From Holosporales bacterium (lineage in GTDB: Bacteria; Pseudomonadota; Alphaproteobacteria; JAJTHO01), in assembly GCA_046338525.1 (NCBI GenBank), contig JBKDWF010000055.1, positions 21,276 to 85,275 on the forward strand: 64,000 nt of DNA, read 5' to 3'. The notes beneath the pieces were generated by a model. It made no database searches. It had not been told where the DNA came from and saw only the letters and a list, made by a program, of their open reading frames with translations. This document shows, one piece after another, positions 12,974-40,975 of this stretch. Numbering within the stretch: position 1 is the first letter of the stretch; each line of letters starts with the position of its first letter. A program made the position numbers and the translations under genes.

Positions 12974-15922
12974 TTAGGGTTCTTGCTTCGCTTTCGGCGC
13001 ACCAAACCAATCAAATACCCCCCGCAACACACCCGGCGTTAAGGCCGTTAGCGGGTTCACGCTAATCGAAGGATTATCTGTTGTACCACTCGCCGTGTAC
13101 CGCATAGCCAAAATGCCTTCCCTTCTGTTGTTAGTTAAAAAATCACCCACAATTGGAATACCGCCAATAATCTGGGTGACGATATAAGCAGGCATAACGG
13201 CTCCCTTTAAATTGAGTTCATTACCCTGCAATCCTATCGTCCCGGCAGCTAAAAAGCCCAGCGATGACCCGGTCATTTTCATATCATCAAGAAACAATGT
13301 GCTTTTATCGAATCTGCCATTAAAGGTCATGATAGAAACTGGCAGACCCTCCCCCATTAACAAATCAATAGGCGCGGTAATAGAAGCTACAGACAAAATT
13401 CTTCCCAGCAGCGGCGCACGCCATAAACCAAAATCTTTTATTGTGCCTTCAAAAGCCCCCGGGTCTCCTAAGCGTAGGGTACCCACCAACTCGCCACCCC
13501 GCATATTAGAATAAAGACCCAGTGCGGCTAAGATACTGCCCGCGTCTTTTGCCTCCAAGCTTACTATATTTTGTTCTAACTTAGCATTAAAAGGAAAAGA
13601 ACGATCGTTTTTGACGATGCTGCCTTGCAAGTTTGCCGCTACTGTCTGACCGTGTCGCCGCTGATACCGAAAAACCACTTTGTGCGCATTAGCTCCTGTA
13701 TTATTATTTGTTTTCAATAAATCCGTCGTTATATCTATATCCAATAGTTGCGGGGTTTTATCCGATTCACTTTTACCACCAGACATTTCCAGAGGCCGCA
13801 ACTGCAAGCTTTTAAAACGCCCCAAGATAATAACACCGCCAGTCTTAGGAATACGGTAACTTAAGCTGCCGTTCGTATCGCCTAACTGCAAAACACTAGT
13901 TCCAAAAAATTGAATATTACCATCATACATTTGGCCTCTACCCCGCAACACATCCTTGCCGCTTTTCAGCACAACCGATTCTATCTGTGTTCCTCGCCCA
14001 TTTATCATTAAATTTGCTTCAAGACTTGCCGGAACATTAATGGGCTTATCCCACACTATCCAAGGCATCTCCAGCGTGGCGCGCAGCATATCCGCACGCA
14101 ATGCCACGGATGAAGCGCCGGAAGCCTTACGCTTCCACGTCACCGTTGTCCCCACTACCCCACGCAGGCTTTGCCCCACATTAATCCCTAAGGATAATAA
14201 TTGCTCTGGCATCAGGTTGGCGGCATTGATAACAGCCGTTTCTGGTGTTGCTGTTTTTCCGGTAAAATCCCGTGCCCAAACAACCTCACTAGGAATCCCA
14301 TTCAACAACCCACGACCATTCAGTTTTGCGCCTTGCGGCGTTACAGAAAGCACCCCAGTAAGTTGTTGTAACCGAAACGCGCTTTGCGGCACGGGAAAAC
14401 CAACGTCTTTTAACTGGCCATTAACATCAATCTGCAATTGACTCACAGGGAGATCGTTCAAGGGTGGGAAACGGGTAAAAAAACGTGTCTCACTGCTCCC
14501 GGTTATTTTTCTAGGATCAAGACCAAAGATATCAGCATAATGTAGCGGAGGCGCATTAACAATAGTCATGTGATCGGAAAGATTGCCGCTTAAATTCAAA
14601 TCAATAACGACTTCCTGGTTATCCGTATCAAGCCCAAGAAAATTCACTGTGCCGCCAATAATTCTTACCCCCTGACATACACCCCCATCGAGGACAATAT
14701 CAAAACTGTTGGCATCAAATGCTGCATTCCCACTTGTTTGCTGCACGGATGGCAGTTCCCCCAGATACTGCACGGTAAAACCTTCAAGACGCATCCCTCC
14801 CTTCAACTCTTGCACAGTGAGTTCTGTTCCTGCTGCTGTCTTATGCACACCAAGGCCTAAGTGAACATGCGCCGTACGAATAGTTCCCGCATCCAAATTG
14901 GTAAAAATCCAAACCCGAGGATTGGGGGCCAAACCTTCCGGCCAAAGCTGACGCAAACTAGAAAAATCAAGAATATCAAGCGCAACATGACCTGTAATAG
15001 CCGCCTGATGCACAGCGCCATCCCACACTGCGGCCACCGATGCCCGTAGGGTTCCTCCTGCAAGACGAAGCTGAGCATCATCAACACGAACCGAACGCTT
15101 TACAAAATCTACCAACATTGTCAGGGTTCCAGACCCCACGACCGTAGAAACCCCAGCCGTCGGCTCTGCTGATACTAATGCCACCGTTAACTGGGGTAAA
15201 ACACCACCCACGCTTGCACCACTCAGTGTCATCTGCACCGGCACAGCAACTGAACCAACCTGTAACGCTCCTGCCGCAGCACCGTTAACCCCTACCGCCG
15301 AAGCCTGTATCGTCCCAGTCATCTCTTTTAGACTGGCCAATGGGGCGGCCATTTTTTCATCAAAAATCCATATTTGGGCGTTATTTACTGTCAACATCCG
15401 CATCGGTAGTTTTGCAAGCACACTGGTAAACCAAACACTTGGATCCAAAACAAATAATGGCGAGGTCTCATTGCGTCGATCAAAAAAAGAAGGTTTTTTG
15501 TCAGCATGCAACACCACACGCAATACCGGCTGTTCCACGGTTAAATGAGTAATTTCATATCCGCGATTATAATTGAAACCGTAGTAAAACATACCGTGCA
15601 ATGCCTGCCACGACAGCCCGCTAGCATTTTTCTCAGCACCTATCGTCGCATTTCCAGAATATATTTCAAAAGTCTGGGCTTTTAAATCCCAGATAAGACG
15701 CACATTTTGCACACTTACTTGCTCTCCCGTCATTACCTCTAACGCCAAGCTTACAAACCGATCCAAGCCAGTGCCCATCAAAGGCCTGCCTGTGCCAAAA
15801 ATAATAGAAACCAGCGTTATCACCAGCAACGCGTTTAAAGTTTTACCCAAAAAACCAAAAATAAGCAGCACGACCGAATCAGAAGCACACCGACAAAAAC
15901 GCAAAAAAGCCCGCATGAGCAT
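12974..15922 (-). CDS. Large AsmA-like/YhdP-family membrane protein (DUF3971-type), 982 aa
   Basis: N-terminal TM anchor; ~1000-aa beta-rich body; conserved C-terminal region (GEGLPVSIMTFNG...AMRYTASGTTDNPSISVNPL) typical of YhdP/AsmA_2 C-termini. Confidence 0.6.
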   Translation of the reverse strand: MLMRAFLRFCRCASDSVVLLIFGFLGKTLNALLVITLVSIIFGTGRPLMGTGLDRFVSLALEVMTGEQVSVQNVRLIWDLKAQTFEIYSGNATIGAEKNASGLSWQALHGMFYYGFNYNRGYEITHLTVEQPVLRVVLHADKKPSFFDRRNETSPLFVLDPSVWFTSVLAKLPMRMLTVNNAQIWIFDEKMAAPLASLKEMTGTIQASAVGVNGAAAGALQVGSVAVPVQMTLSGASVGGVLPQLTVALVSAEPTAGVSTVVGSGTLTMLVDFVKRSVRVDDAQLRLAGGTLRASVAAVWDGAVHQAAITGHVALDILDFSSLRQLWPEGLAPNPRVWIFTNLDAGTIRTAHVHLGLGVHKTAAGTELTVQELKGGMRLEGFTVQYLGELPSVQQTSGNAAFDANSFDIVLDGGVCQGVRIIGGTVNFLGLDTDNQEVVIDLNLSGNLSDHMTIVNAPPLHYADIFGLDPRKITGSSETRFFTRFPPLNDLPVSQLQIDVNGQLKDVGFPVPQSAFRLQQLTGVLSVTPQGAKLNGRGLLNGIPSEVVWARDFTGKTATPETAVINAANLMPEQLLSLGINVGQSLRGVVGTTVTWKRKASGASSVALRADMLRATLEMPWIVWDKPINVPASLEANLMINGRGTQIESVVLKSGKDVLRGRGQMYDGNIQFFGTSVLQLGDTNGSLSYRIPKTGGVIILGRFKSLQLRPLEMSGGKSESDKTPQLLDIDITTDLLKTNNNTGANAHKVVFRYQRRHGQTVAANLQGSIVKNDRSFPFNAKLEQNIVSLEAKDAGSILAALGLYSNMRGGELVGTLRLGDPGAFEGTIKDFGLWRAPLLGRILSVASITAPIDLLMGEGLPVSIMTFNGRFDKSTLFLDDMKMTGSSLGFLAAGTIGLQGNELNLKGAVMPAYIVTQIIGGIPIVGDFLTNNRREGILAMRYTASGTTDNPSISVNPLTALTPGVLRGVFDWFGAPKAKQEP

Positions 15923-15937
15923 AATCTTCCACCCGGG

Positions 15938-18900
15938 CTATTCTAATCCCCTAAGCCCCCTATTCACCAGCGTTAAAAATCCAACGTCAATACCACCCCC
16001 TAACGCATGGGCAAGAGTTTGGCGATACTTAACCAACCGAGAAGCATTCTTCACCTCAAAGGCCTCGAGAGCCTTGGCTACAGTATCTTTTTTGACGTTT
16101 TTTAACAAACAAGTACTAAGATTACGAATAATCTCATACAGATCGGCTAACACCGCCGTACGAGCCTGAGCCTGCCAAGGTGCGTTCAAGGGGATGGCCG
16201 CAGCGGCTGTTTCCAGTTGCGGCAACGACAGCATCTCCGCCAAACCCACATACCCAGCGGCAGCATCTGACAACGACGCCTTAGTGGCCTCGGCCACACG
16301 GATAATGTCAGTAGCATACCGCAGGGATTTCAACTGAGCTACCTGATGCGATAATTCCGAAGGCACATGAACAGCTATCCATGCCTGCGCTTGTTGGTGC
16401 ACTGCGGAACTTTGCAAGCCAGATATTTCCCGAAAAGCCTTTGCCAATCCAGCAACAGACGGCGCATAATGCGCCACTAAAGCTGTAACATCTAAGGGCT
16501 GCTTTTCTTGACCCAAAAACCACAAAGCTTGATGCTCTACTAAGGTATTCACAGCATGATGCAATTCCAACTGCACCGCCACAGGCACCTTATTGTCTAA
16601 CTTTTCAATTGCACCCCACAACGCCCTAAGACCAAACACCTCCCGCGCCGTAGCATAAGCACGCACAATATCACACAAGGGCGCACCGCTGGTTTCCTCC
16701 AACGCATGAGCAAAATGAATGCCGCAACGATTCACGATACTGTTGGCCGCGTGGGTGGCAATAATTTCTCGGCGTAGGGGATGAGCTGCGATCTCGGCTT
16801 CAAAATTTTCCTGCAACCGTACGGGGAAGTACCGTTTTAAATCATTGGCCATGCGCGGCTCATCTGGAATTTTCGAGGTAATAAGCTCGTCAAAAATATC
16901 CATCTTGGCGTACGCAAGCAGTACCGCCAATTCTGGCCTAGTAAGGGGTTTATTCTGACGGGTTCTGGCCGCCAAGCTAACATCATCGGGCAAGCATTCC
17001 AACGCACGGTTAAGCTTACCTTTAGCTTCCAACCGCCGCATCAGCCCAGCATAAGCACCATGCAACTGGATACCTTTGGCTTCCGCCAAGGATAACGCCG
17101 CCGTCTGCAAATAATTATCATAAATCACTAATTCTGCGACTTCATCGGTCATGGCCTCCAGCAAGCGGTTGCGTTCCTCAATTTTAAAGTGCCGCCGCCG
17201 GGTTACTTCCTGCATGAGAATTTTAATATTCACTTCATGATCCGAACAATCCACGCCAGCAGAGTTATCAATGGCATCAGTATTGAGGCGGACACCTTGC
17301 TGGGCTGCCTCAATTCTCGATTTTTGGGTCATTCCCAAATTCGCACCTTCACCAATAACCTTTGCCTTCAATGCCGAAGCACTGATACGCAGCGCGTCGT
17401 TTGTTTTATCGCCGACCTCCACATCGGTTTCATGATTGGCCCGCACATAAGTTCCAATACCACCAAACCACAACAATTCCACATCCATGCCCAAAATAAG
17501 CCGAATCAAAGCATCGGGGGTCAACGCATTTTCCTCAGTCCCTAAAAGCCCACGAACAACAGGGCTTAAAGTAATCGTTTTCGCACTACGGTCAAAAACG
17601 CCGCCGCCTTCAGAAATAAGACGGGGATTATAATCACTCCATTGAGAAGCAGGTAGGTTGAAAAGACGCTGCCGCTCTACAAAACTGGCTTCTACATCGG
17701 GGTTTGGATCGAGGAAAATATGCTTATGATTAAACGCTGCCAACAGGCGAATCTGCGAAGAGAGCAGCATCCCATTGCCAAACACATCCCCCGACATATC
17801 GCCCACCCCGGCAACCGTGAACGGTGTCGCCTGAATATCTTTACCCCGTTCCCGAAAATGACGCTTAACCGCCTCCCAACCGCCCCGGGCAGTAATCCCC
17901 ATTTTCTTATGATCATAACCAACGGACCCCCCGCTGGCAAAAGCATCACCCAACCAGAAGCCATATTCAGCCGCCAACGCATTGGCAATATCCGAAAAGG
18001 TCGCGGTGCCTTTATCTGCTGCCACCACTAGGTAAGGATCGTCACCATCATGACGCACTACTTGAGCCGGCGGCACAACTTTATTCCCGTGCAAATTATC
18101 GGTGATATCCAATAATCCCCGAATCAGGGTTTGATAGCAGCGAACGACCTCTACCTGCTGTTCTTCCCGGGGCAGACCCACCAACGATTTTTTAACAACA
18201 AACCCGCCTTTGCTTCCCACTGGCACAATAACTGCGTTCTTCACCATTTGAGCCTTGATGAGGCCGAGAACCTCCCGGCGGAAATCTTCCCGCCGATCGG
18301 ACCAACGAATCCCCCCACGGGCAACCTTACCACCACGCAGATGTATCCCCTCCATATATGCAGCATAAACAAATATTTCCGCATACGGACACGGCTGGGG
18401 CAAATCAGGCACGAGGTTGCTGTTCATTTTAAAAGAGAAATATTTTTTCAACTGGCCATTGGCATCATGCTGAAACACATTTGTGCGCCAAATCGCCTCA
18501 ACAAGCGCAATCAAATAGCGTACGACGCTGTCTTCCACTAAACTACGCACCGTTGTCAGACGCTCTTGCAACCGTGCCCGCACCGCGGCTGCATCCATTG
18601 TGTTCTCTGGGGCAAAGCGGGCATCAAATAATGCCGCTATATCTGCCGCGATAACTGGATAGGCCAACAACGTCGCACTGATAACAGCCACGCTGTGAGC
18701 AAAACCAGCTTGCCGCGCATAAAATGCCAATGCCCTCAAGGTGGCCACCTGCCGCCAGTGCAAACCAGCAATGATCGTCAGGCTGTTCAGTGCATCATCT
18801 TCAGCATCGCCGCTCCACACAGCAACAAACGTAGCCTCTACGCCTGCTGCGGTAGTAGCACCCAACACAAAATTTGAATCCGAAGAAAAAACAGTAAAAT

Positions 18901-20740
18901 CATGAATCCATGCCCGGGTAGAATGATCAGCAGCCTTAATTTCATAAGCATCCTCGCCCATAGTTCGAAAACCGATATTTTCTAAAATAGGCAGCACACG
19001 ATATAAGGGCAGAGCATTATCCAAAGAAAAAATACGAATGCTATATTGTCCATGCCCCCGCTCTGGCGCGGCGACAAGGCGCACGTGAATCCGCTCATCC
19101 GCATAAAGCATCGCCAGCGCTTGAGTATCGGCGGCGGCAATCGCTGGGGTTGAGGCCTCTTGATACGATAGAGGGAAACCTTGCCCAAACCGGGCGTGTA
19201 GAGCCGTTGCAACATTACTTATACACGCACTATCGAGAGCCTGACGAAGGCTTTCCGTCCAACCATTAATGATTTCATTCAGACGTTGTTCCAACGCGGC
19301 ATGATCAATGGCAGGTCTAGCTTTTGGGTTCACTGCAAAAACAAAATTGATTCGCGCCAACGGTGATTCTTCCACTTGGCCGTTACTAACCCTTACCGCC
19401 CCGGCAACAGCATTAGCCAGCAATACTTCAATACGCCGCAAGACATCCTGACTAAATTTCTCCCGTGGCAGGTACACTAGCGCACTCACCGTATGCTCCC
19501 ACGGAGCGGTGTGCAAGAATAAGGCAATTCGTGGGCGTTCCTGCAACCGCAGGACATTGGTGCTCAGACGAAAAAGCTCATCCTTGTCAAGCTGATAAAT
19601 ATCATCCCTTGGCAGGGTTTTAAGAATATGGAGCAATACCTTACCGTCGTGACCATTGGGATCGAGACCCGACCTCTCCATCACATAACGAGCTTTATGA
19701 CGCAGGAACGGAATTTCTTCGGGGCTTTCCTGATACGCACTGGAGGTAAACAAACCGACAATCCGTAGCTCACCCACCAACCGCGACCGCTCATCAAACA
19801 CTTTCAAAGTAATAACATCCAGCGGAACCGCCCGATGCACGAGAGAAATAGCCTTGGCTTTTGCCACGTGAAGCAACTGCGGCTTGGTAAGAAAAAGCTG
19901 AATATCAATAGGCAACGTCTCGGCAGATTCTTCCTCAGCGTCAATAAACAATTGAGAATCGTGCTGACGCAAAATTCCCAAACCATCGCCATTAGGAATA
20001 ATACGCAGGCTGGCTCCATAAGGATCATGATAATGCCTAGCCTGAACCCCCAGCAGGGTAAAGTGATCGGCAAGAAGCCACTCCAAAAAAGCCACTGTCT
20101 CAGCATGTTCTTCGGGCTGCACTGGCGACTCATGGCGGCGGAGAAGATCGATATGCTGCCGCACTAGAGCCTGCATCGCCGGCCAATCTGTCGTGGCCAA
20201 GGTCACTGCAGCCAGCACCTGTCGCACCCCGTCCAGCAAGCTCTTCCTAGCCATCTCATCTTGGGGAACCTTGAGGTAAATCAACATCGCCGATACCACA
20301 TCCGCACTTTCCTCAGCAGGATGGATTCCGGAAAAACGCTGCAACTTAATGATATTATTATTTTCCCGAACAACAAGCACCACAGGATGAGCAATGAAAT
20401 CAATACTTAACCCCTGGCGCGCAATAGCCGCCGTTACCGAACTTACCAGAAAGGGGCGATCCTCATTAAGAAGCAACAACGCCACCCGACCAGGCTGCAA
20501 ACTGTCCCGCAGAACAACAAGCGGTTGCCGATCGCGCTTATCCACCAAAGCCCGCCACAATGCCCCAACATCCTCGGCAAATGCCGCTGACCGCAAAGAA
20601 TGCCTATCTTCAGCAGCAACATCACTTAAAAAAAGATCAAGAAACTGTCGCTCCAGTCCAGTGGGCACACCTTCATTAAGGGTTTCCCAAGAAGCCATTG
20701 AAAGATTAATAGAGGATACGTTCTTTACGGTGATAGTCAT
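15938..20740 (-). CDS. NAD-specific glutamate dehydrogenase, large (~180 kDa) GdhB/GdhZ type
   Basis: 1600 aa; Bac_GDH signature ([43 protein letters not shown]) and ELFHV dehydrogenase core. Confidence 0.9.
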   Translation of the reverse strand: [1600 protein letters not shown]

Positions 20741-34223: not shown

Positions 34224-34342
34224 AGAATCTTGATACCATAATAAAGGCGCTAAAGTCTTCCTTTTGTTAAAGCATCTCTTAACCATCCCCTAACCCTTTT
34301 CCGGTATGATTCTTGCACGAACACACTGGGAAGGACCTATTA

Positions 34343-35743
34343 ATGGCCGAATACCGCCAAGGATTAGATTTGCGCCAGGCACAGGGCCTGATGATGACGC
34401 CGCAATTGCGGCAGGCCATTGCCTTGCTGCAAACATCCCAGCAGGAATTGGCCAGCCTTATTGAAGGCGAACTCCTCATCAACCCGCTGCTGGAAGTGCA
34501 GGAAACCGCCCCGGACAGCGAGGGAACAGGCGTTGATACCCCCGACGATCTCCCCGATTTGGACAGCGGCGAAGGCGACTGGCGCACCGCCGAGGGCGAC
34601 GGGGCCGCTTGGGATGCCAGTGGCCACGCCGAGGGCGACCGCCTGGCCAGCCTCACTGATGCGTTGACGTTAACAGATCACCTAAGCCGTCAGGCCGGAA
34701 TGCTATTTTCCGAGCATCATGAGCGCCTGCTGGCCGCGCAGCTCATCGATATGATCGACGCCTCAGGGTATTTTACCGAAGACGTGGCGGCCGTGGCCGA
34801 GCGGCTGGGGGAAGACGTGGCCGTTGTTGAGGCGATACTGCTGCGCCTGCAACAGTGTGAGCCGGCAGGGGTGTTTGCCCGGTCGCTGAAGGAATGCTTA
34901 GCGTTGCAGCTACGCGACCTAGGGCACCTAGACCCGTGGATGGAAACTTTACTCGAAAACCTGCCGTTAGTGGCGGCGCGGGAGCACGCGAAACTGCAAA
35001 AAATCATTGGCTGCGACGGCGGCACGCTGGCGGAAATGCTGGCCGAATTAAAGCGTCTTGATCCCAAACCTGGGGCAAAATTTCTTCATATCCCCATTGA
35101 AACCATGATTCCCGATGTCTTTGTGCGTAAAGATGCCAATGGCCAATGGACAGCAGAATTAAACCCCCAAGCCCAGCCCAATATTGTCCTCAACAGCACC
35201 TTTTACCAAAAAGCCGCCGGGATGATGCCCGATAAAGAACAAAAAAAGTTCTTAAGTACCTGCCATCAAAACGGTAACTTTCTGCTCAAGGCTCTCGCTC
35301 AAAGAGCAGAAACCATCATGCGGGTAACAACCGCTTTAGTAGCTAGGCAACAAGACTTTTTTGACAAGGGCATTCGCTATCTGCGCCCCATGGTCTTACG
35401 CGAAATTGCTGAAGATTTAGGCATCCATGAAAGCACCGTCAGCCGCATCACCACCAAAAAATACCTCGCCAGCCCTCGCGGCGTCGTGGAACTGAAATAC
35501 TTTTTTGCCGCCGGCCTTAAAAACGTCGTCGGTCAAGAGGGTGCCGTCTCTGCCCGCACGGTGCAACATCGCATCAGTCATTTGATTGAGAATGAACAAC
35601 CATCAAAACCGCTGTCCGATGAAACCCTAGTGGATTTGCTCAGCAAAGAAGGCATTGAAGTAGCCAGACGCACCGTCGCCAAATACCGGGAAGGGTTAGG
35701 TATTGCCAACTCGTCTCAACGGCGGCGGGAGAAGCGAGCATAA
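34343..35743 (+). CDS. rpoN: RNA polymerase sigma-54 factor RpoN
   Basis: N-terminal Gln/Leu-rich activator-interacting region (LMMTPQLRQAIALLQ); C-terminal RpoN box (ARRTVAKYRE) and HTH. Confidence 0.9.
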   Translation: MAEYRQGLDLRQAQGLMMTPQLRQAIALLQTSQQELASLIEGELLINPLLEVQETAPDSEGTGVDTPDDLPDLDSGEGDWRTAEGDGAAWDASGHAEGDRLASLTDALTLTDHLSRQAGMLFSEHHERLLAAQLIDMIDASGYFTEDVAAVAERLGEDVAVVEAILLRLQQCEPAGVFARSLKECLALQLRDLGHLDPWMETLLENLPLVAAREHAKLQKIIGCDGGTLAEMLAELKRLDPKPGAKFLHIPIETMIPDVFVRKDANGQWTAELNPQAQPNIVLNSTFYQKAAGMMPDKEQKKFLSTCHQNGNFLLKALAQRAETIMRVTTALVARQQDFFDKGIRYLRPMVLREIAEDLGIHESTVSRITTKKYLASPRGVVELKYFFAAGLKNVVGQEGAVSARTVQHRISHLIENEQPSKPLSDETLVDLLSKEGIEVARRTVAKYREGLGIANSSQRRREKRA

Positions 35744-35760: not shown

Positions 35761-37923
35761 CTAGGCTCTATCCTGTGCATCTGGCAAACCACCAAAACAA
35801 CATTTTATTCGTGTCTCAAACGGTGGATTATCTATCAGCTGTACTGTTGCCCCATGGCTATGCAAATCCGCCACCGCCAACAACACCCCAAAATGATGCA
35901 ATTGTTCACCATAATCCAAAAAGCTACCGTCTTTTGTAAAAAGCGCGGCCACTGGCAAAGGGATAAGAGCATTAGTAGCCTGAAATATCAAAGTAACGCC
36001 TTGGTTATCCCGCTGCCCCTGTACGGTTATGACGCCTCCTTCTGATGTATGCCGTATCAAAAACAACAAGAACTGTTCTATTGCTTGGCGAAATTTTTCC
36101 TCATCAAGAAAAAGACTGCCCACATCAGCGGCCAAGAAAAAATTCAACTTTACACCACGAGATTTTACTTCTTTATCAACAATATTTACCACGGTACGCA
36201 AGGTTGGTAATAACTGCGTCTCGCTAAGACTCAACGTAGCTTTACGGGTTTGCGCGGCAATCAGTTTTAATGTTGTTTGCAGAGTTTTTTGCAGCTGCAC
36301 ACTGGCATTATGCATAAAAGTTATATAATCATAACGCTTGGCTTGGGGAAAATCGGAACGCTGAGCCAACGTCGAAAATGCGGCAATCGCATCCCCCAGA
36401 TCGAGTAATTCGCGGCAATATTTTTGTAAGAACACACCGTATTGGGTAATATTCTGGCGGTATTGTTGTTCGAGAGCATCTTGCTGACTAATATCTTGGA
36501 AAACAATTAATTGTTCTTCTGTCTCAAGAGGCTGCACTGTGACTTTAAAAGTATTATTATTATCAAGAACGATAGGCATGCTCTCTTTATTTTTCAATAA
36601 AATAAGCTGCTGCATTTTTTTTGCATCATCATCTTTTAATGCCTTAATAACCATTTGCCACAGCATCTCTGTTGAAATATCTTTAGAAATAGCAAACAGC
36701 TCAAGCAGTTTTGCATTCCATCGAACGGGCTGATGGGCTGCATTCAACCACAACAAGCCTATACCAAAAATATCGCCCGCATGCTTCGCCGCATGATACG
36801 CAGCATCGACGGCTTTTTGATTTCTGGTCTGTTCCGAAATATCGCGATAACAATACAATAGGCCACCTGTCTTTTGGGGTATGATGCTTATGTCAAGAAC
36901 CCGTCCCTCCAAAAATTCAAGTATGACCTTTTCTTCTGCCACAATACTGCGAAATATCTGTTTTTGCTTGGCAATAAAGCGTTCATAATCGTTAGCATGT
37001 AAAAATGGTTTAATTTTTTGCTTATGTTCAAAAATTCTTTCTACAGTCAATGTCTGATCTGCCAAAATATCCGTTGTTAATTCCCACATATGAACAAAGG
37101 CATCATTATAAAAAACAAGCCGTTTTTTTGTGTCAAAAAGAGCCACCGCGGTATCAACACGATCAAGAATTCCCTGATACACTTGGCTTTGATGTTCAAT
37201 ATCATATTCCAGCGCACACACTGCGGATACATCGCAGGCAAACCCCACCGTACCAGAACCATCTTGGAGTGGCATTTCCGAAATTTCAAAAAGCCTAGGC
37301 TGCCCGTCGATGATCAGGGTATGCCGCTGGGTCATGCCATCGGTTGGTGCTTGATTTTTTGCCGTTACTTCTACCGAAACAAATTCAATTTGCTGTTCGA
37401 GGACTTCTAAGAAAGAATGCCCCACTGCGTGGGTATAGGCTTCGTTCACAAAAATTAAATGACCCTCTGCGGTGCGTGTCCACGCAGGCGTAGGCATCTT
37501 GTCTATCAAAGCACGCAGTTGCGCCGGTAAGCGATCAATAGGCGTGGTCACAGAAGCGACTACAGGTGCCGCTCTACTCGCCAACGGCTCGACCTGAAAA
37601 ATGGGTGTTGGCGCAATATCCATAACAAATGGCGGAGGAACCACGCCAGTGTTTTTTTTATCACGATTTCTGATCTTAAGAAATATCCCAAGCAACACCA
37701 CAATAAAAAGAAATACTCCTGCAAAGCCAAGCCACAACGGAATACCTACACCTTCAATTTCTACCGTCTGTCGCATAACATCCGGCGGCCATAAAGACTG
37801 GGCACCACCTGAAACCGGGACGAAAAAAAACCACAGCCCCACGATCAGGGATACCAGCCTTCTCAGACTCCCTAAAAAATCAATAACGGTAGTGGCTTGG
37901 TTTATAGTCACCTTCAGGGTCAA
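35761..37923 (-). CDS. PAS-domain sensor histidine kinase-like protein with degenerate catalytic core (putative pseudokinase); AT-rich
   Basis: Two N-terminal TM helices, three PAS-like segments, then an H-box-like motif [16 protein letters not shown] with Arg at the phosphoacceptor His position; HATPase region lacks G1/G2 glycine boxes. Confidence 0.6.
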
Positions 37924-39199
37924 TATTGAGGTATTCTGCTTGCTTTTTCGTTAACCGGGTTAATTTTGCCCCCAACTTTGGTAAATGCAACGCAGCAACT
38001 TTTTCATCCAAGCGTTTGGGAAGAATATACACACCAATTTTGTATTTATTACTGTGTTGCCAGAGTTCAATTTGTGCCAAGACTTGGTTGCTGAAACTAG
38101 CGCTCATCACAAAACTTGGGTGCCCAGCGGCGCAGCCAAGGTTCACCAAGCGGCCCTCGGCCAACACCAGCAAACGCTTCCCGTCTGGGAAGGTGACCTC
38201 ATGCACTTGGGGCTTAATTTCCGTCCACGTGTAGTTGCGTAGGGCTTCGATTTGAATTTCGCTGTCAAAATGCCCAATATTACAGATAATAGCACGATCC
38301 TTCATCTGCCGCATATGATCGAGGGTAATAACATCAACGTTACCGGTGGCGGTGACAAAAATATCGCCGTTACTAGCCACGTCGTCCATCGTCACAATTT
38401 GATAGCCTTCCATGCAGGCTTGCAGCGCACAAATCGGGTCAATCTCTGTAACCAATACCCGCGCACCGTGGTTACGCAGTGCCGCCGCCGAACCTTTGCC
38501 CACATCGCCGTACCCGGCCACTACCGCTGTTTTACCGGCAATCATGGTTCCCGTAGCGCGTTTAATCCCATCCACCAAGCTTTCCCGACACCCATACAGG
38601 TTGTCAAACTTGGATTTTGTCACGGAATCATTGACGTTGATAGCCGGAACTTTCAGCTCTCCCTTACGGTGCATCTCATACAAACGGTGCACGCCGGTGG
38701 TGGTTTCTTCGGAAATGCCTCTGATATCTTTCAGTAATTCAGGAAACTTATTGTGCATCATTACGGTCAAATCGCCGCCGTCGTCTAAAATCATGTTTGG
38801 ACGCCAGCCGTTCGGGCCAAGAATCGTTTGCTCAATACACCAATCAGCCTCTTCCAGCGTTTGGCCTTTCCAAGCAAACACCGCCACGCCAGAGACCGCA
38901 ATAGCCGCCGCCGCCTGATCTTGCGTGGAAAAAATGTTGCAGCTGCTCCAGCGCACTTCGGCACCCAAAGCCGTCAGCGTTTCAATCAACACAGCCGTCT
39001 GCACCGTCATGTGCAGGCATCCGGCAATCCGCGCGCCTTTCAGCGGCTGCCGCGCCGCATACTCTGCCCGAATCTGCATCAGGCCGGGCATCTCACTCTC
39101 CGCCAAGGATATTTCCCGCCGCCCCCATTCCGCCAAGCTCATGTCGGCAACTTTATAATCAACGGTATGGACGTGGGCTTTTTTAGTGGCGGCGGTCAT
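37880..39199 (-). CDS. ahcY: Adenosylhomocysteinase (start placed at MTAATKK)
   Basis: AhcY N-terminal motif ([28 protein letters not shown]), NAD-binding [11 protein letters not shown]-terminal [11 protein letters not shown]. Confidence 0.9.
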
Positions 39200-39274
39200 G
39201 AGTGTATCCTTTGTTGGAGAGTGTGTAGGCGAGTGCCTGGCCGGATGCAAGCGGGCATTAAAACTGCGGGCGGG

Positions 39275-39304
39275 ACAAAAATGACAAAAATGACAAAAAT
39301 GACT
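39275..39304. repeat. Tandem 9-bp repeat (ACAAAAATG x3.3) in the ahcY upstream region
   Basis: Direct inspection: gggACAAAAATGACAAAAATGACAAAAATGACttta. Confidence 0.8.
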
Positions 39305-39400: not shown

Positions 39401-39470
39401 CGAGCGCCGGAGGCGCGTGGCGATCCAGAAAAATAATGTCTGCTGGATGACCACGCGCCTCCGGCGCTCG
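39401..39470. repeat. Perfect 20-bp inverted repeat (CGAGCGCCGGAGGCGCGTGG / CCACGCGCCTCCGGCGCTCG) with nested 6-bp inverted repeat (ATCCAG/CTGGAT) in the 30-nt spacer
   Basis: Direct inspection; ~200 nt upstream of the ahcY start, no adjacent T-run. Confidence 0.8.
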
Positions 39471-39687
39471 TCATGACAGAGTTTCTTTTTAAAAAATTGA
39501 TCTCATTGCAATTAATGCGGGGGCTTTGTTGCATAATTCGCAAGCAGTTGATAACAAAAATGAATTTTTGTGGCATTTTTACAACAACTTCCGCCTAAGC
39601 CAAGGGCAGCTTAAAACTTATGCAACAACACCGTGAAAAGCATGAATATAAATAATTGGTTTTAATAATTTTAAACGCCCTCACCCC

Positions 39688-39991
39688 TACCCCTCTCCCA
39701 GAGGGAGAGGGGTTTCCAGAGTCTGCCACACTGGATTCTGGCTTTGGTGCAGCAATCGCACAATAAAAACCTGTTTTTCCTTTAAATAATAAATGCATAA
39801 ATGGCGTTCAACAGGCAAAGCCCGGCATCCGGGCGCGCCTGCCCCGCAAAGGGATTATCCGCAATAAGGCGCAAGGCTTTTTGTATTTTTTGAGTATAAA
39901 AAACAGCTTGGCGTTCTCCATACCGCTGGGCCGTGTATTGAACAATACTGCGCATATCCCGCCGGGCAGCCGGCGAAATTTTAAGAAGCAC
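39688..39991 (-). pseudogene. ParE/RelE-family toxin remnant, frameshifted (N-terminal 69 aa in one frame; C-terminal VFIVRLLHQSQNP in another frame)
   Basis: N-terminal ParE pattern (LKISPAARRDMRSIVQYTAQRYGERQAVFYTQKIQKALRLIADNPFAGQARPD); conserved C-terminal ParE motif in the -1/+1 frame downstream of the premature stop; overlaps parD stop. Confidence 0.5.
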
Positions 39992-40274
39992 TGCTGCCTC
40001 TTGGTGCTACCAGCGGCTCTTCCAACGCAAGCCCCTGCGCTGCGCGCTGCAACCCTTCTTCAAGAACAGATGAGAGTTGCTGATCATCCCAATCCAGTGC
40101 CTGCCCCGCATCAATTTCAGCAAGGCCCACGGCAACAGCATGATAAAAATTCTCGGTATCCAGCCGCAAACGGCGTACCGCTTCTTGAATCAGTGCCTCT
40201 TCCGACGGGAAGGCTTTTGTTTGCAACTGGCAGGCAACAAAATGCCGTTCAGCCTCATGTAAAGGAATGAGCAT
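39981..40274 (-). CDS. ParD-family (RHH, COG3609) antitoxin
   Basis: ParD pattern FPSEEALIQEAVRRLRLDTE ... IDAG; immediately upstream of and overlapping the ParE-like remnant. Confidence 0.5.
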   Translation of the reverse strand: MLIPLHEAERHFVACQLQTKAFPSEEALIQEAVRRLRLDTENFYHAVAVGLAEIDAGQALDWDDQQLSSVLEEGLQRAAQGLALEEPLVAPRGSSAS

Positions 40275-40466: not shown

Positions 40467-40721
40467 ATGGAAACCCAAACTTACAGTGCCCTGCGGCAAA
40501 ATTTATCCCATAGCTTGGATGCTGTTTGCAACAACCACGAACCCTTGCTCATCACACGGCGCAGCGGGGCCAGTGTGGTGATGATGTCGCTAGAGGATTT
40601 TAACGGCTGGCAAGAGACGCTGCATTTGTTAAAACATCCAAAAAACAACGAATTTCTCCACGCAAGCCTACACCAAGTTCAAACAGGCCAAACCATCACT
40701 GTTGATCCCGCCGCCCTGTGA
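40467..40721 (+). CDS. yefM: YefM/Phd-family antitoxin
   Basis: Collinear with E. coli YefM (YSEARQNLS...PLLITRRSGASVVMMSLEDFNGWQETLHLL). Confidence 0.85.
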   Translation: METQTYSALRQNLSHSLDAVCNNHEPLLITRRSGASVVMMSLEDFNGWQETLHLLKHPKNNEFLHASLHQVQTGQTITVDPAAL

Positions 40722-40975
40722 ACCTTGTTTTTTCCCACAAGGCTTGGGAACAGTTTTGCCTACTGGCGGATCACGATCCCAAACTGCAAAAGAAGATCCG
40801 CGCCTTATTAAAAGAGTGCCTGAAAACCCCCTTTACTGGCACCGGCAAGCCAGAACCCCTGAAGCACGACTTGTCCGGGTACTGGTCGCGGCGCATCACC
40901 CATGAGCATCGATTGGTGTATACAGTCTCGAACAACGATCTCGTGGTGGTGCAGTGTTGCTATCATTATGGATAA
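40718..40975 (+). CDS. yoeB: YoeB/Txe-family toxin (ribosome-dependent mRNA interferase)
   Basis: Strong collinearity with YoeB (TPFTGTGKPEPLKHDLSGYWSRRITHEHRLVY); ATGA overlap with yefM. Confidence 0.85.
   Translation: MNLVFSHKAWEQFCLLADHDPKLQKKIRALLKECLKTPFTGTGKPEPLKHDLSGYWSRRITHEHRLVYTVSNNDLVVVQCCYHYG

Follow-up and report, generated by a model that had tools for sequence, protein, structure and literature searches.

A probable, highly divergent DivL ortholog lacking kinase catalytic motifs in a Holosporales bacterium

The stretch of DNA analysed here is 64,000 nucleotides of contig JBKDWF010000055.1 (hereafter the window) from a bacterium of the Holosporales, an order of alphaproteobacterial endosymbionts. 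It carries a gene for a PAS domain protein (35761..37923, minus strand) that is probably a very divergent ortholog of divL, encoding a membrane-tethered protein whose most likely role is to regulate the CckA-ChpT-CtrA phosphorelay allosterically or as a scaffold, without catalysis. The protein is homologous to DivL, has lost the catalytic motifs of a kinase, retains the kinase fold in the predicted structure, is under purifying selection and is encoded in conserved synteny with ahcY. An earlier note, made from the sequence alone, had described it as a putative pseudokinase resembling DivL. The pseudokinase interpretation was upheld by profile alignment, by the predicted fold and by recurrence in independent assemblies. 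The likeness to DivL was likewise supported, but is recast here as homology, and specifically orthology, rather than analogy.

Results

Loss of the phosphoacceptor and ATP-binding motifs

The H-box equivalent comprises 16 residues (498-513; 36385..36432, minus strand), exactly where an Arg had been reported at the phosphoacceptor position. Three alignments (MAFFT, HMM and hhalign) place Arg504 (36412..36414) on the column of the phosphoacceptor His or Tyr. DHp helix 1 (residues 495-520) contains no His at all. The proposed loss of the G1 and G2 boxes was also borne out, DTGPGIP being replaced by ATNALIP (residues 649-655) and GPGIGLS by GVLLAVA. An N-box-like stretch had been described as retained; the equivalent helix is indeed in position, but NLLANA reads QFLLFL and both Asn are gone, the catalytic one among them. 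Profile alignment recovered no displaced His, no hidden G1 or G2 box and no N-box Asn. With Arg at the phosphoacceptor and the N-box Asn, the G1 Asp and Gly and the G2 Gly all replaced, the product is predicted to have no phosphoacceptor, to be unable to bind Mg-ATP canonically and hence to be unable to autophosphorylate.

The two closest database proteins, P0001 (94% identity) and P0002 (64%), come from metagenome-assembled genomes (MAGs) labelled Holosporales, and with the window protein they form the trio used as query below. A search of genome loci with the trio alignment returned one locus, L001; both this locus and a member of the P0002 cluster bear the Holosporales label. The same motifs recur in these independent assemblies (P0001 at 94% identity, P0002 and L001 at 64-65%) and are thus not a sequencing artefact, an alternative that had been raised at the outset.

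Domain architecture and predicted structure

Pfam detected only PAS domains in the product: PAS at residues 135-230, PAS_7 at 253-369 and a second PAS_7 stretch. HisKA gave no match even at E≤10, and HATPase_c scored 12.7 bits, under its cut-off of 26.4. An AlphaFold2 model, built from an input alignment of eight sequences, reached a mean predicted local distance difference test score (pLDDT) of 68.8. The N-terminal helices scored low, the PAS folds mostly 75-90 and the CA sandwich mostly 80-89. Together, Pfam and the model back the two N-terminal hydrophobic helices and three PAS regions that had been read from the sequence.

All elements lie on the minus strand. The first hydrophobic helix (residues 16-33; 37825..37878) may be a signal peptide or a first transmembrane helix; in relatives with Tyr at the phosphoacceptor it is followed by an AxAQ-type motif. 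The second (residues 61-90; 37654..37743) is a transmembrane helix that aligns with the membrane anchor of DivL-type relatives. Three PAS folds follow, at residues 134-231 (37231..37524), 255-361 (Pfam PAS_7; 36841..37161) and 388-477 (36493..36762), which we equate by alignment position with PAS-B, PAS-C and PAS-D of DivL. A segment of about 65-100 aa at the N-terminus of typical DivLs is missing, and by its position this segment is taken to be PAS-A. The C-terminal part is modelled as a DHp-like helical hairpin (residues 495-558; 36250..36441) and a CA-like alpha/beta domain (residues 567-711; 35791..36225). Hence, in the model, the DHp/CA fold is kept, as a four-helix-bundle protomer and a Bergerat-type CA fold.

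Foldseek placed this C-terminal part on Caulobacter DivL (4q20_B) with a target-normalised TM-score of 0.76, an rmsd of 4.2 Å and 21% identity. Other kinase cores gave target-normalised scores of 0.79 (CusS) and 0.67 (HK853); DivL had the highest sequence identity among the kinase cores matched.

Assignment to DivL

A profile of the trio was aligned by hhalign with 13 DivLs of the Tyr type. The alignment had a probability of 100% (E = 1.5e-41) over 576 columns, extending from PAS-B through the whole of the CA domain, and set Arg504 on the DivL Tyr. The best match of the window protein by sequence in the PDB was Caulobacter DivL (4q20, E = 6e-5, with the runner-up at 0.029). The Tyr-type relative P0005 matched the same structure at E = 3.8e-44, with NVSYELRTPL aligned to HVSYELRSPL, and the next-best kinase followed about 15 orders of magnitude behind (5.5e-29).

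Among the closest database proteins, P0001 and P0002 are followed by five relatives of 816-839 aa with about 22% identity, of which four carry HVSYELRSPL, with Tyr at the phosphoacceptor, and one has Ala. An exhaustive HMMER search with the trio against 1.84 billion representatives gave 3353 matches. The phosphoacceptor column was surveyed in the pooled protein set, of which 156 DHp/CA segments, most of them from its top 150, could be aligned. Tyr was found in 119, His in 9, Ala in 5, Arg in 5 and scattered other residues in the remainder. Because non-Tyr residues occur among the aligned segments, Tyr can be regarded as typical of DivL but not universal. A word-indexed search with the eight-sequence alignment yielded generic PAS kinases for the most part and contributed nothing further.

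The layout of the protein is that of DivL, with a membrane tether, several PAS domains, a DHp and a CA domain; only the PAS-A segment is missing. A canonical sensor kinase shares the fold, but would have the phosphoacceptor His and the N, G1 and G2 boxes, none of which is present. The short, PAS-only form of DivL lacks both DHp and CA, whereas the window protein has the two folds, each of them under purifying selection.

Graded states among Holosporales relatives

A second Holosporales clade consists of P0009 (from MAG GCA_046336535.1, labelled Holosporales) and P0271, and is 26% identical to the window protein. The two clades share Arg at the phosphoacceptor (HVSRALVDPL in the second), the lack of a PAS-A segment and the position of the gene behind ahcY, with an overlap of about 35 nt. 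However, the second clade has kept the N-box (NVLSNA) and G1 (DTGAG), its HisKA and HATPase_c domains are detected by Pfam, and its GC content is near that of its neighbours. P0037, from a cluster labelled Holosporaceae, has kept the Tyr and has degenerate CA boxes. Partial or full loss of the CA boxes is frequent among the 156 aligned segments, Tyr-type proteins included, and the clade of the window protein is the extreme case of this recurrent loss. DivL thus occurs in three states in Holosporales: Tyr with degenerate CA boxes, Arg with N and G1 intact, and Arg with the CA boxes erased.

At the locus of the second clade in GCA_046336535.1 (L009, 1..3119), a methyl-accepting chemotaxis protein and a small canonical PAS-HisKA-HATPase_c kinase are encoded within 3 kb of ahcY-divL, and therefore this lineage keeps more signalling capacity than the window shows locally.

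Ortholog or independent paralog

Several observations weigh against a DivL assignment. The window protein is no more than about 21-23% identical to Tyr-type DivLs, and the signature Tyr of the family is replaced by Arg in it as well as in P0001, P0002, P0009 and P0271. The two DHp helices (495-520 and 527-558) were modelled with only moderate confidence (pLDDT 54-69) from the eight-sequence alignment. In Caulobacter, phosphorylated DivK docks on the DivL DHp through R553, T557, Y562 and H579 (PMC4211667), and the first three of these correspond to Leu507, Asp511 and Phe516 in the window protein; any DivK-type input may therefore be altered, lost or rewired. Moreover, no gene for CckA, ChpT, CtrA, DivK, PleC or DivJ was found in the window.

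The low identity and the missing Tyr would also suit an independent PAS kinase paralog that lost catalysis separately and took on an unrelated role, for example as a membrane signal receptor. Some alphaproteobacteria have two divL homologs (PMC8116508), and His stands at the site in the 9 segments counted above. This origin is nonetheless unlikely, given that the profiles align with DivLs end to end from PAS-B to CA, that the top relatives are overwhelmingly of the Tyr type and that DivL is the best solved structure by sequence. Furthermore, P0009 and P0271 form an intermediate clade that bridges to typical DivLs at 33-37% identity, and no second DivL-like gene was seen among the loci read. 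The gene is accordingly treated below as a divergent divL.

Selection on the gene

Ratios of nonsynonymous to synonymous substitution (dN/dS) were calculated against the 64%-identical ortholog in L001, at a dS of about 1.0. The ratio for the whole gene was 0.21. PAS-C was the most constrained region (0.08), followed by DHp (0.10), PAS-B (0.13) and CA (0.21); the N-terminus (0.39) and PAS-D (0.49), the fastest-evolving part, were the least. The neighbouring ahcY and rpoN gave 0.03 and 0.06.

A decaying relic kinase, functionless and drifting towards AT in a reduced endosymbiont genome, might look similar in some respects. The gene is the most diverged in the region shared with L001 (64.7% amino acid identity, where 14 other genes range from 76% to 97%), ranks second from the bottom in GC content among the 47 open reading frames (ORFs) of the window and has had every catalytic motif erased. 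However, three lineages separated by a dS of about 1 all retain an uninterrupted, full-length ORF, and 331 residues are invariant across the trio. The dN/dS of the gene, and above all of its DHp, is far below the neutral value of 1, and the fold is predicted with good confidence. Decay is very unlikely on these grounds: the gene is evolving fast under constraint.

PAS-D contains a mosaic or hypervariable patch of 246 nt (residues ~400-482; 36479..36724, minus strand), which is 68% identical to the corresponding part of the related locus L002. Outside it the gene is 99.6% identical to L002, and the aligned flanks are mostly 97-100% identical per 100-nt window. The patch has sharp borders and differs from L002 at 78 positions, with every type of substitution represented and no indels (dS 0.67, omega 0.31); the window, L002 and L001 are mutually equidistant across it. 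Its appearance suggests a hypervariable cassette or a segment imported by recombination, and MAG chimerism might also have produced it. A diversity-generating retroelement was considered and rejected, as all substitution types occur and no template repeat was found in the window.

Base composition

The gene had been described as much richer in AT than rpoN and ahcY, and this was borne out: its GC content is 43.3% (39.7% at third codon positions, GC3), against 55.3% and 51.8%. The mean of the 47 window ORFs is 52.1% (sd 4.8). The L001 ortholog is likewise biased, with windows of 36-44% GC against 47-54% in its flanks, and in the less degenerate Holosporales clade the bias is slight (49% against 51%).

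On composition alone (GC about 43% against about 52% for the window, GC3 about 40%), the gene could have been acquired horizontally. This is most improbable, since the same overlapping site behind ahcY is occupied in five loci representing two clades that share only 26% identity, the AT bias is common to L001, and it is weak in the less degenerate clade. The borders show no mobile-element features either, as the gene overlaps ahcY. The data fit AT-richness conserved within the lineage and going with fast yet constrained evolution, rather than recent transfer. The bias is best accounted for by a constraint that has been relaxed but not lost, together with AT-biased mutation pressure, the latter being assumed.

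GC content varies strongly among the genes of the window, from 41% to 66%. The minimum (41.0%) is a 570-aa ORF without a Pfam match (28..1740, plus strand). The maximum (65.7%, GC3 78%) is a CysG-like sirohaem synthase gene (1747..3033, plus strand) that starts 6 nt after it.

Start codon and gene neighbourhood

As reported earlier, the longest ORF encodes 720 aa, and it begins at a TTG (37923). Gene calls in three related assemblies start four codons downstream, at the position of GTG 37911, and the true product is therefore probably 716 aa. On its 5' side the gene overlaps the 3' end of ahcY (S-adenosylhomocysteine hydrolase; 37880..39199, minus strand), whose stop codon TGA is at 37882..37880. 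The previously noted overlap of about 44 nt holds from the TTG, but shrinks to 32 nt from the likelier GTG. On the other side lies rpoN (sigma-54; 34313..35743, plus strand) in convergent orientation, the two stops being 17 nt apart, and this arrangement is also kept in L001 and L002.

The overlapping ahcY-divL pair is kept in five related loci (L001, L002, L008, L009 and L010), three of them labelled Holosporales, and was absent from four loci of other relatives outside Holosporales, where no ahcY adjoined the DivL-type gene. In Agrobacterium DivL is Atu0027 (PMC3577659), and ahcY is presumably Atu0029, close to it. The neighbours were considered as a possible tsaE/NTP-transferase/addB cluster, which follows DivL in other alphaproteobacteria; this was rejected, as the ORFs encode SecY, Adk and AcrB.

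Receiver domains, sought by tblastn with four REC queries, were not found in the window, in agreement with the reported absence of an adjoining response regulator, nor in loci L001, L008 and L009. No other kinase was found in the window, L001 or L008. There was no CtrA box (TTAA-N7-TTAA) near the ahcY-divL operon, and the window as a whole has two matches to it, no more than expected by chance. A scan of the whole window gave no Rfam match above the gathering score, and no S-adenosylhomocysteine riboswitch was detected 5' of ahcY. Promoter and terminator scans gave a signal no higher than background. The leader just 5' of the operon contains a perfect 9-nt tandem repeat (39274..39303; GACAAAAAT x 3.3), and beside it, at 39456..39555, the window and L002 differ in length by 11 nt.

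Other features of the window

Between a phasin gene and ahcY, on the 5' side of the latter, lies a toxin-antitoxin pair comprising a YefM/Phd antitoxin (40467..40721, plus strand; Pfam E = 4e-19) and a YoeB toxin (40718..40975, plus strand; E = 9e-33), which overlap by 4 nt. The phasin-ahcY interval in L001 is far shorter (phasin ends at 6592 and ahcY starts at 6665) and holds no ORF of at least 120 aa; therefore the pair is probably a lineage-specific insertion. Beside it is a 97-aa ORF without a Pfam match (39981..40274, minus strand). Elsewhere in the window are genes for an NAD-specific glutamate dehydrogenase of 1600 aa (15938..20740, minus strand) and two proteins of the envelope lipid-transport type, one YhdP-like (982 aa; 12974..15922, minus strand) and one AsmA-like (798 aa; 6081..8477, plus strand). 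All three are unusually large for a presumed reduced endosymbiont genome.

Discussion

The closest characterised counterpart of the protein is DivL of Caulobacter crescentus (4q20, Tyr550), with which it shares a membrane anchor, multiple PAS domains, DHp and CA folds and a phosphoacceptor other than His. They differ in that Caulobacter DivL has Tyr rather than Arg, has kept its H, N, G1, F and G2 boxes (PMC4211667) and has a PAS-A, the segment that is missing here. Across DivL homologs Tyr replaces His, with the exception of Magnetospirillum, which has Ala (Childers et al., PMC4211667). DivL of Magnetospirillum magneticum is thus a precedent for a DivL without Tyr, but with Ala where the window protein has Arg. 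The Ala-type relatives found here (P0003, P0016 and P0273) have intact CA boxes, unlike the window protein.

Degenerate DivLs have been described in another order. Those of Oceanicella actignis and Albimonas pacifica are long, with degenerate HK and CA domains, and were read as a stage after the loss of DivK (2022 study, PMC9430884); in every case where DivK is missing, DivL was found to lack a kinase domain (Brilli et al., PMC2877005). Like the window protein, the Oceanicella and Albimonas DivLs are of full length with a recognisable but degenerate kinase module. They belong to the Rhodobacterales, however, and their degeneration is therefore independent of that in Holosporales. In the short, PAS-only DivLs of Rhodobacterales (PMC2877005, PMC9430884) the DHp and CA have been deleted, which is consistent with a conserved functional core of DivL made up of its PAS domains, whereas the window protein keeps both folds at a dN/dS of 0.10 and 0.21. 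A search of the literature on cell-cycle regulators of Holosporales found nothing specific. What is new here is a further, independent degenerate DivL from another order, which combines Arg at the phosphoacceptor, erased ATP boxes and no PAS-A with folds that remain under selection.

Work on Caulobacter suggests how such a protein could function. The essential functions of DivL depend on neither phosphorylation of the DHp nor the CA domain, and DivL lacks kinase and phosphatase activity (PMC4211667). DivL without PAS-A regulates CckA as the full-length protein does, and PAS B-D are critical (bioRxiv 10.1101/323444); the dispensability of PAS-A in these truncations matches the absence of the segment here. 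By analogy, the product would most likely form a membrane-tethered dimer that regulates CckA through contacts made by PAS-B to PAS-D. Its DHp would serve in dimerisation, and a single-domain response regulator of the DivK type might dock on it. DHp and CA together would be a non-catalytic scaffold for dimerisation and transmission. Both the interaction with CckA and any DivK-type input are projected from the better-studied DivLs. The catalytic residues have been erased over a long span of evolution, and still purifying selection acts on the DHp and CA folds, which implies that the dead core does structural or sensing work.

The same selection, and a trio-invariant His538 in DHp helix 2, could be cited for a product that still works as a kinase or phosphotransferase by non-canonical chemistry, through a different acceptor residue or through the ATP-binding domain of a partner in trans. 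This is scarcely credible when the phosphoacceptor face of helix 1 has neither His nor Tyr, when other residues stand in place of the N-box Asn, the G1 Asp and the G2 glycines, and when even Caulobacter DivL, with intact boxes, has no kinase activity in vitro (PMC4211667).

A more speculative extension of the scaffold role, which we hold to be rather unlikely, concerns the Arg itself, which is common to two deeply diverged Holosporales lineages. It could be an adaptive reader of the phosphorylated Asp of a DivK-like receiver, the guanidinium group taking the place of His or Tyr and forming a salt bridge to the phosphoryl group of the receiver. The dead core would then be a nucleotide-free sensor of phosphorylated regulators, the PAS-D patch would tune the output to CckA, and DHp and CA would be kept solely as a scaffold for sensing and transmission. 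If true, this would explain a dN/dS of 0.1-0.2 despite the total loss of catalytic motifs.

The divergent DivL of Holosporales is a natural experiment that confirms and extends the Caulobacter genetics on the dispensability of the DivL Tyr and ATPase domain. Its relatives are at present annotated merely as 'PAS domain-containing protein', and the practical value of the finding lies chiefly in the annotation of such proteins. Moreover, the graded series within Holosporales lets one ask why the DHp and CA domains of a pseudokinase persist, and whether their decay tracks the loss of DivK. Lastly, the finding points to the retention of DivL, and by implication of the CtrA pathway, among the reduced endosymbionts of protists.

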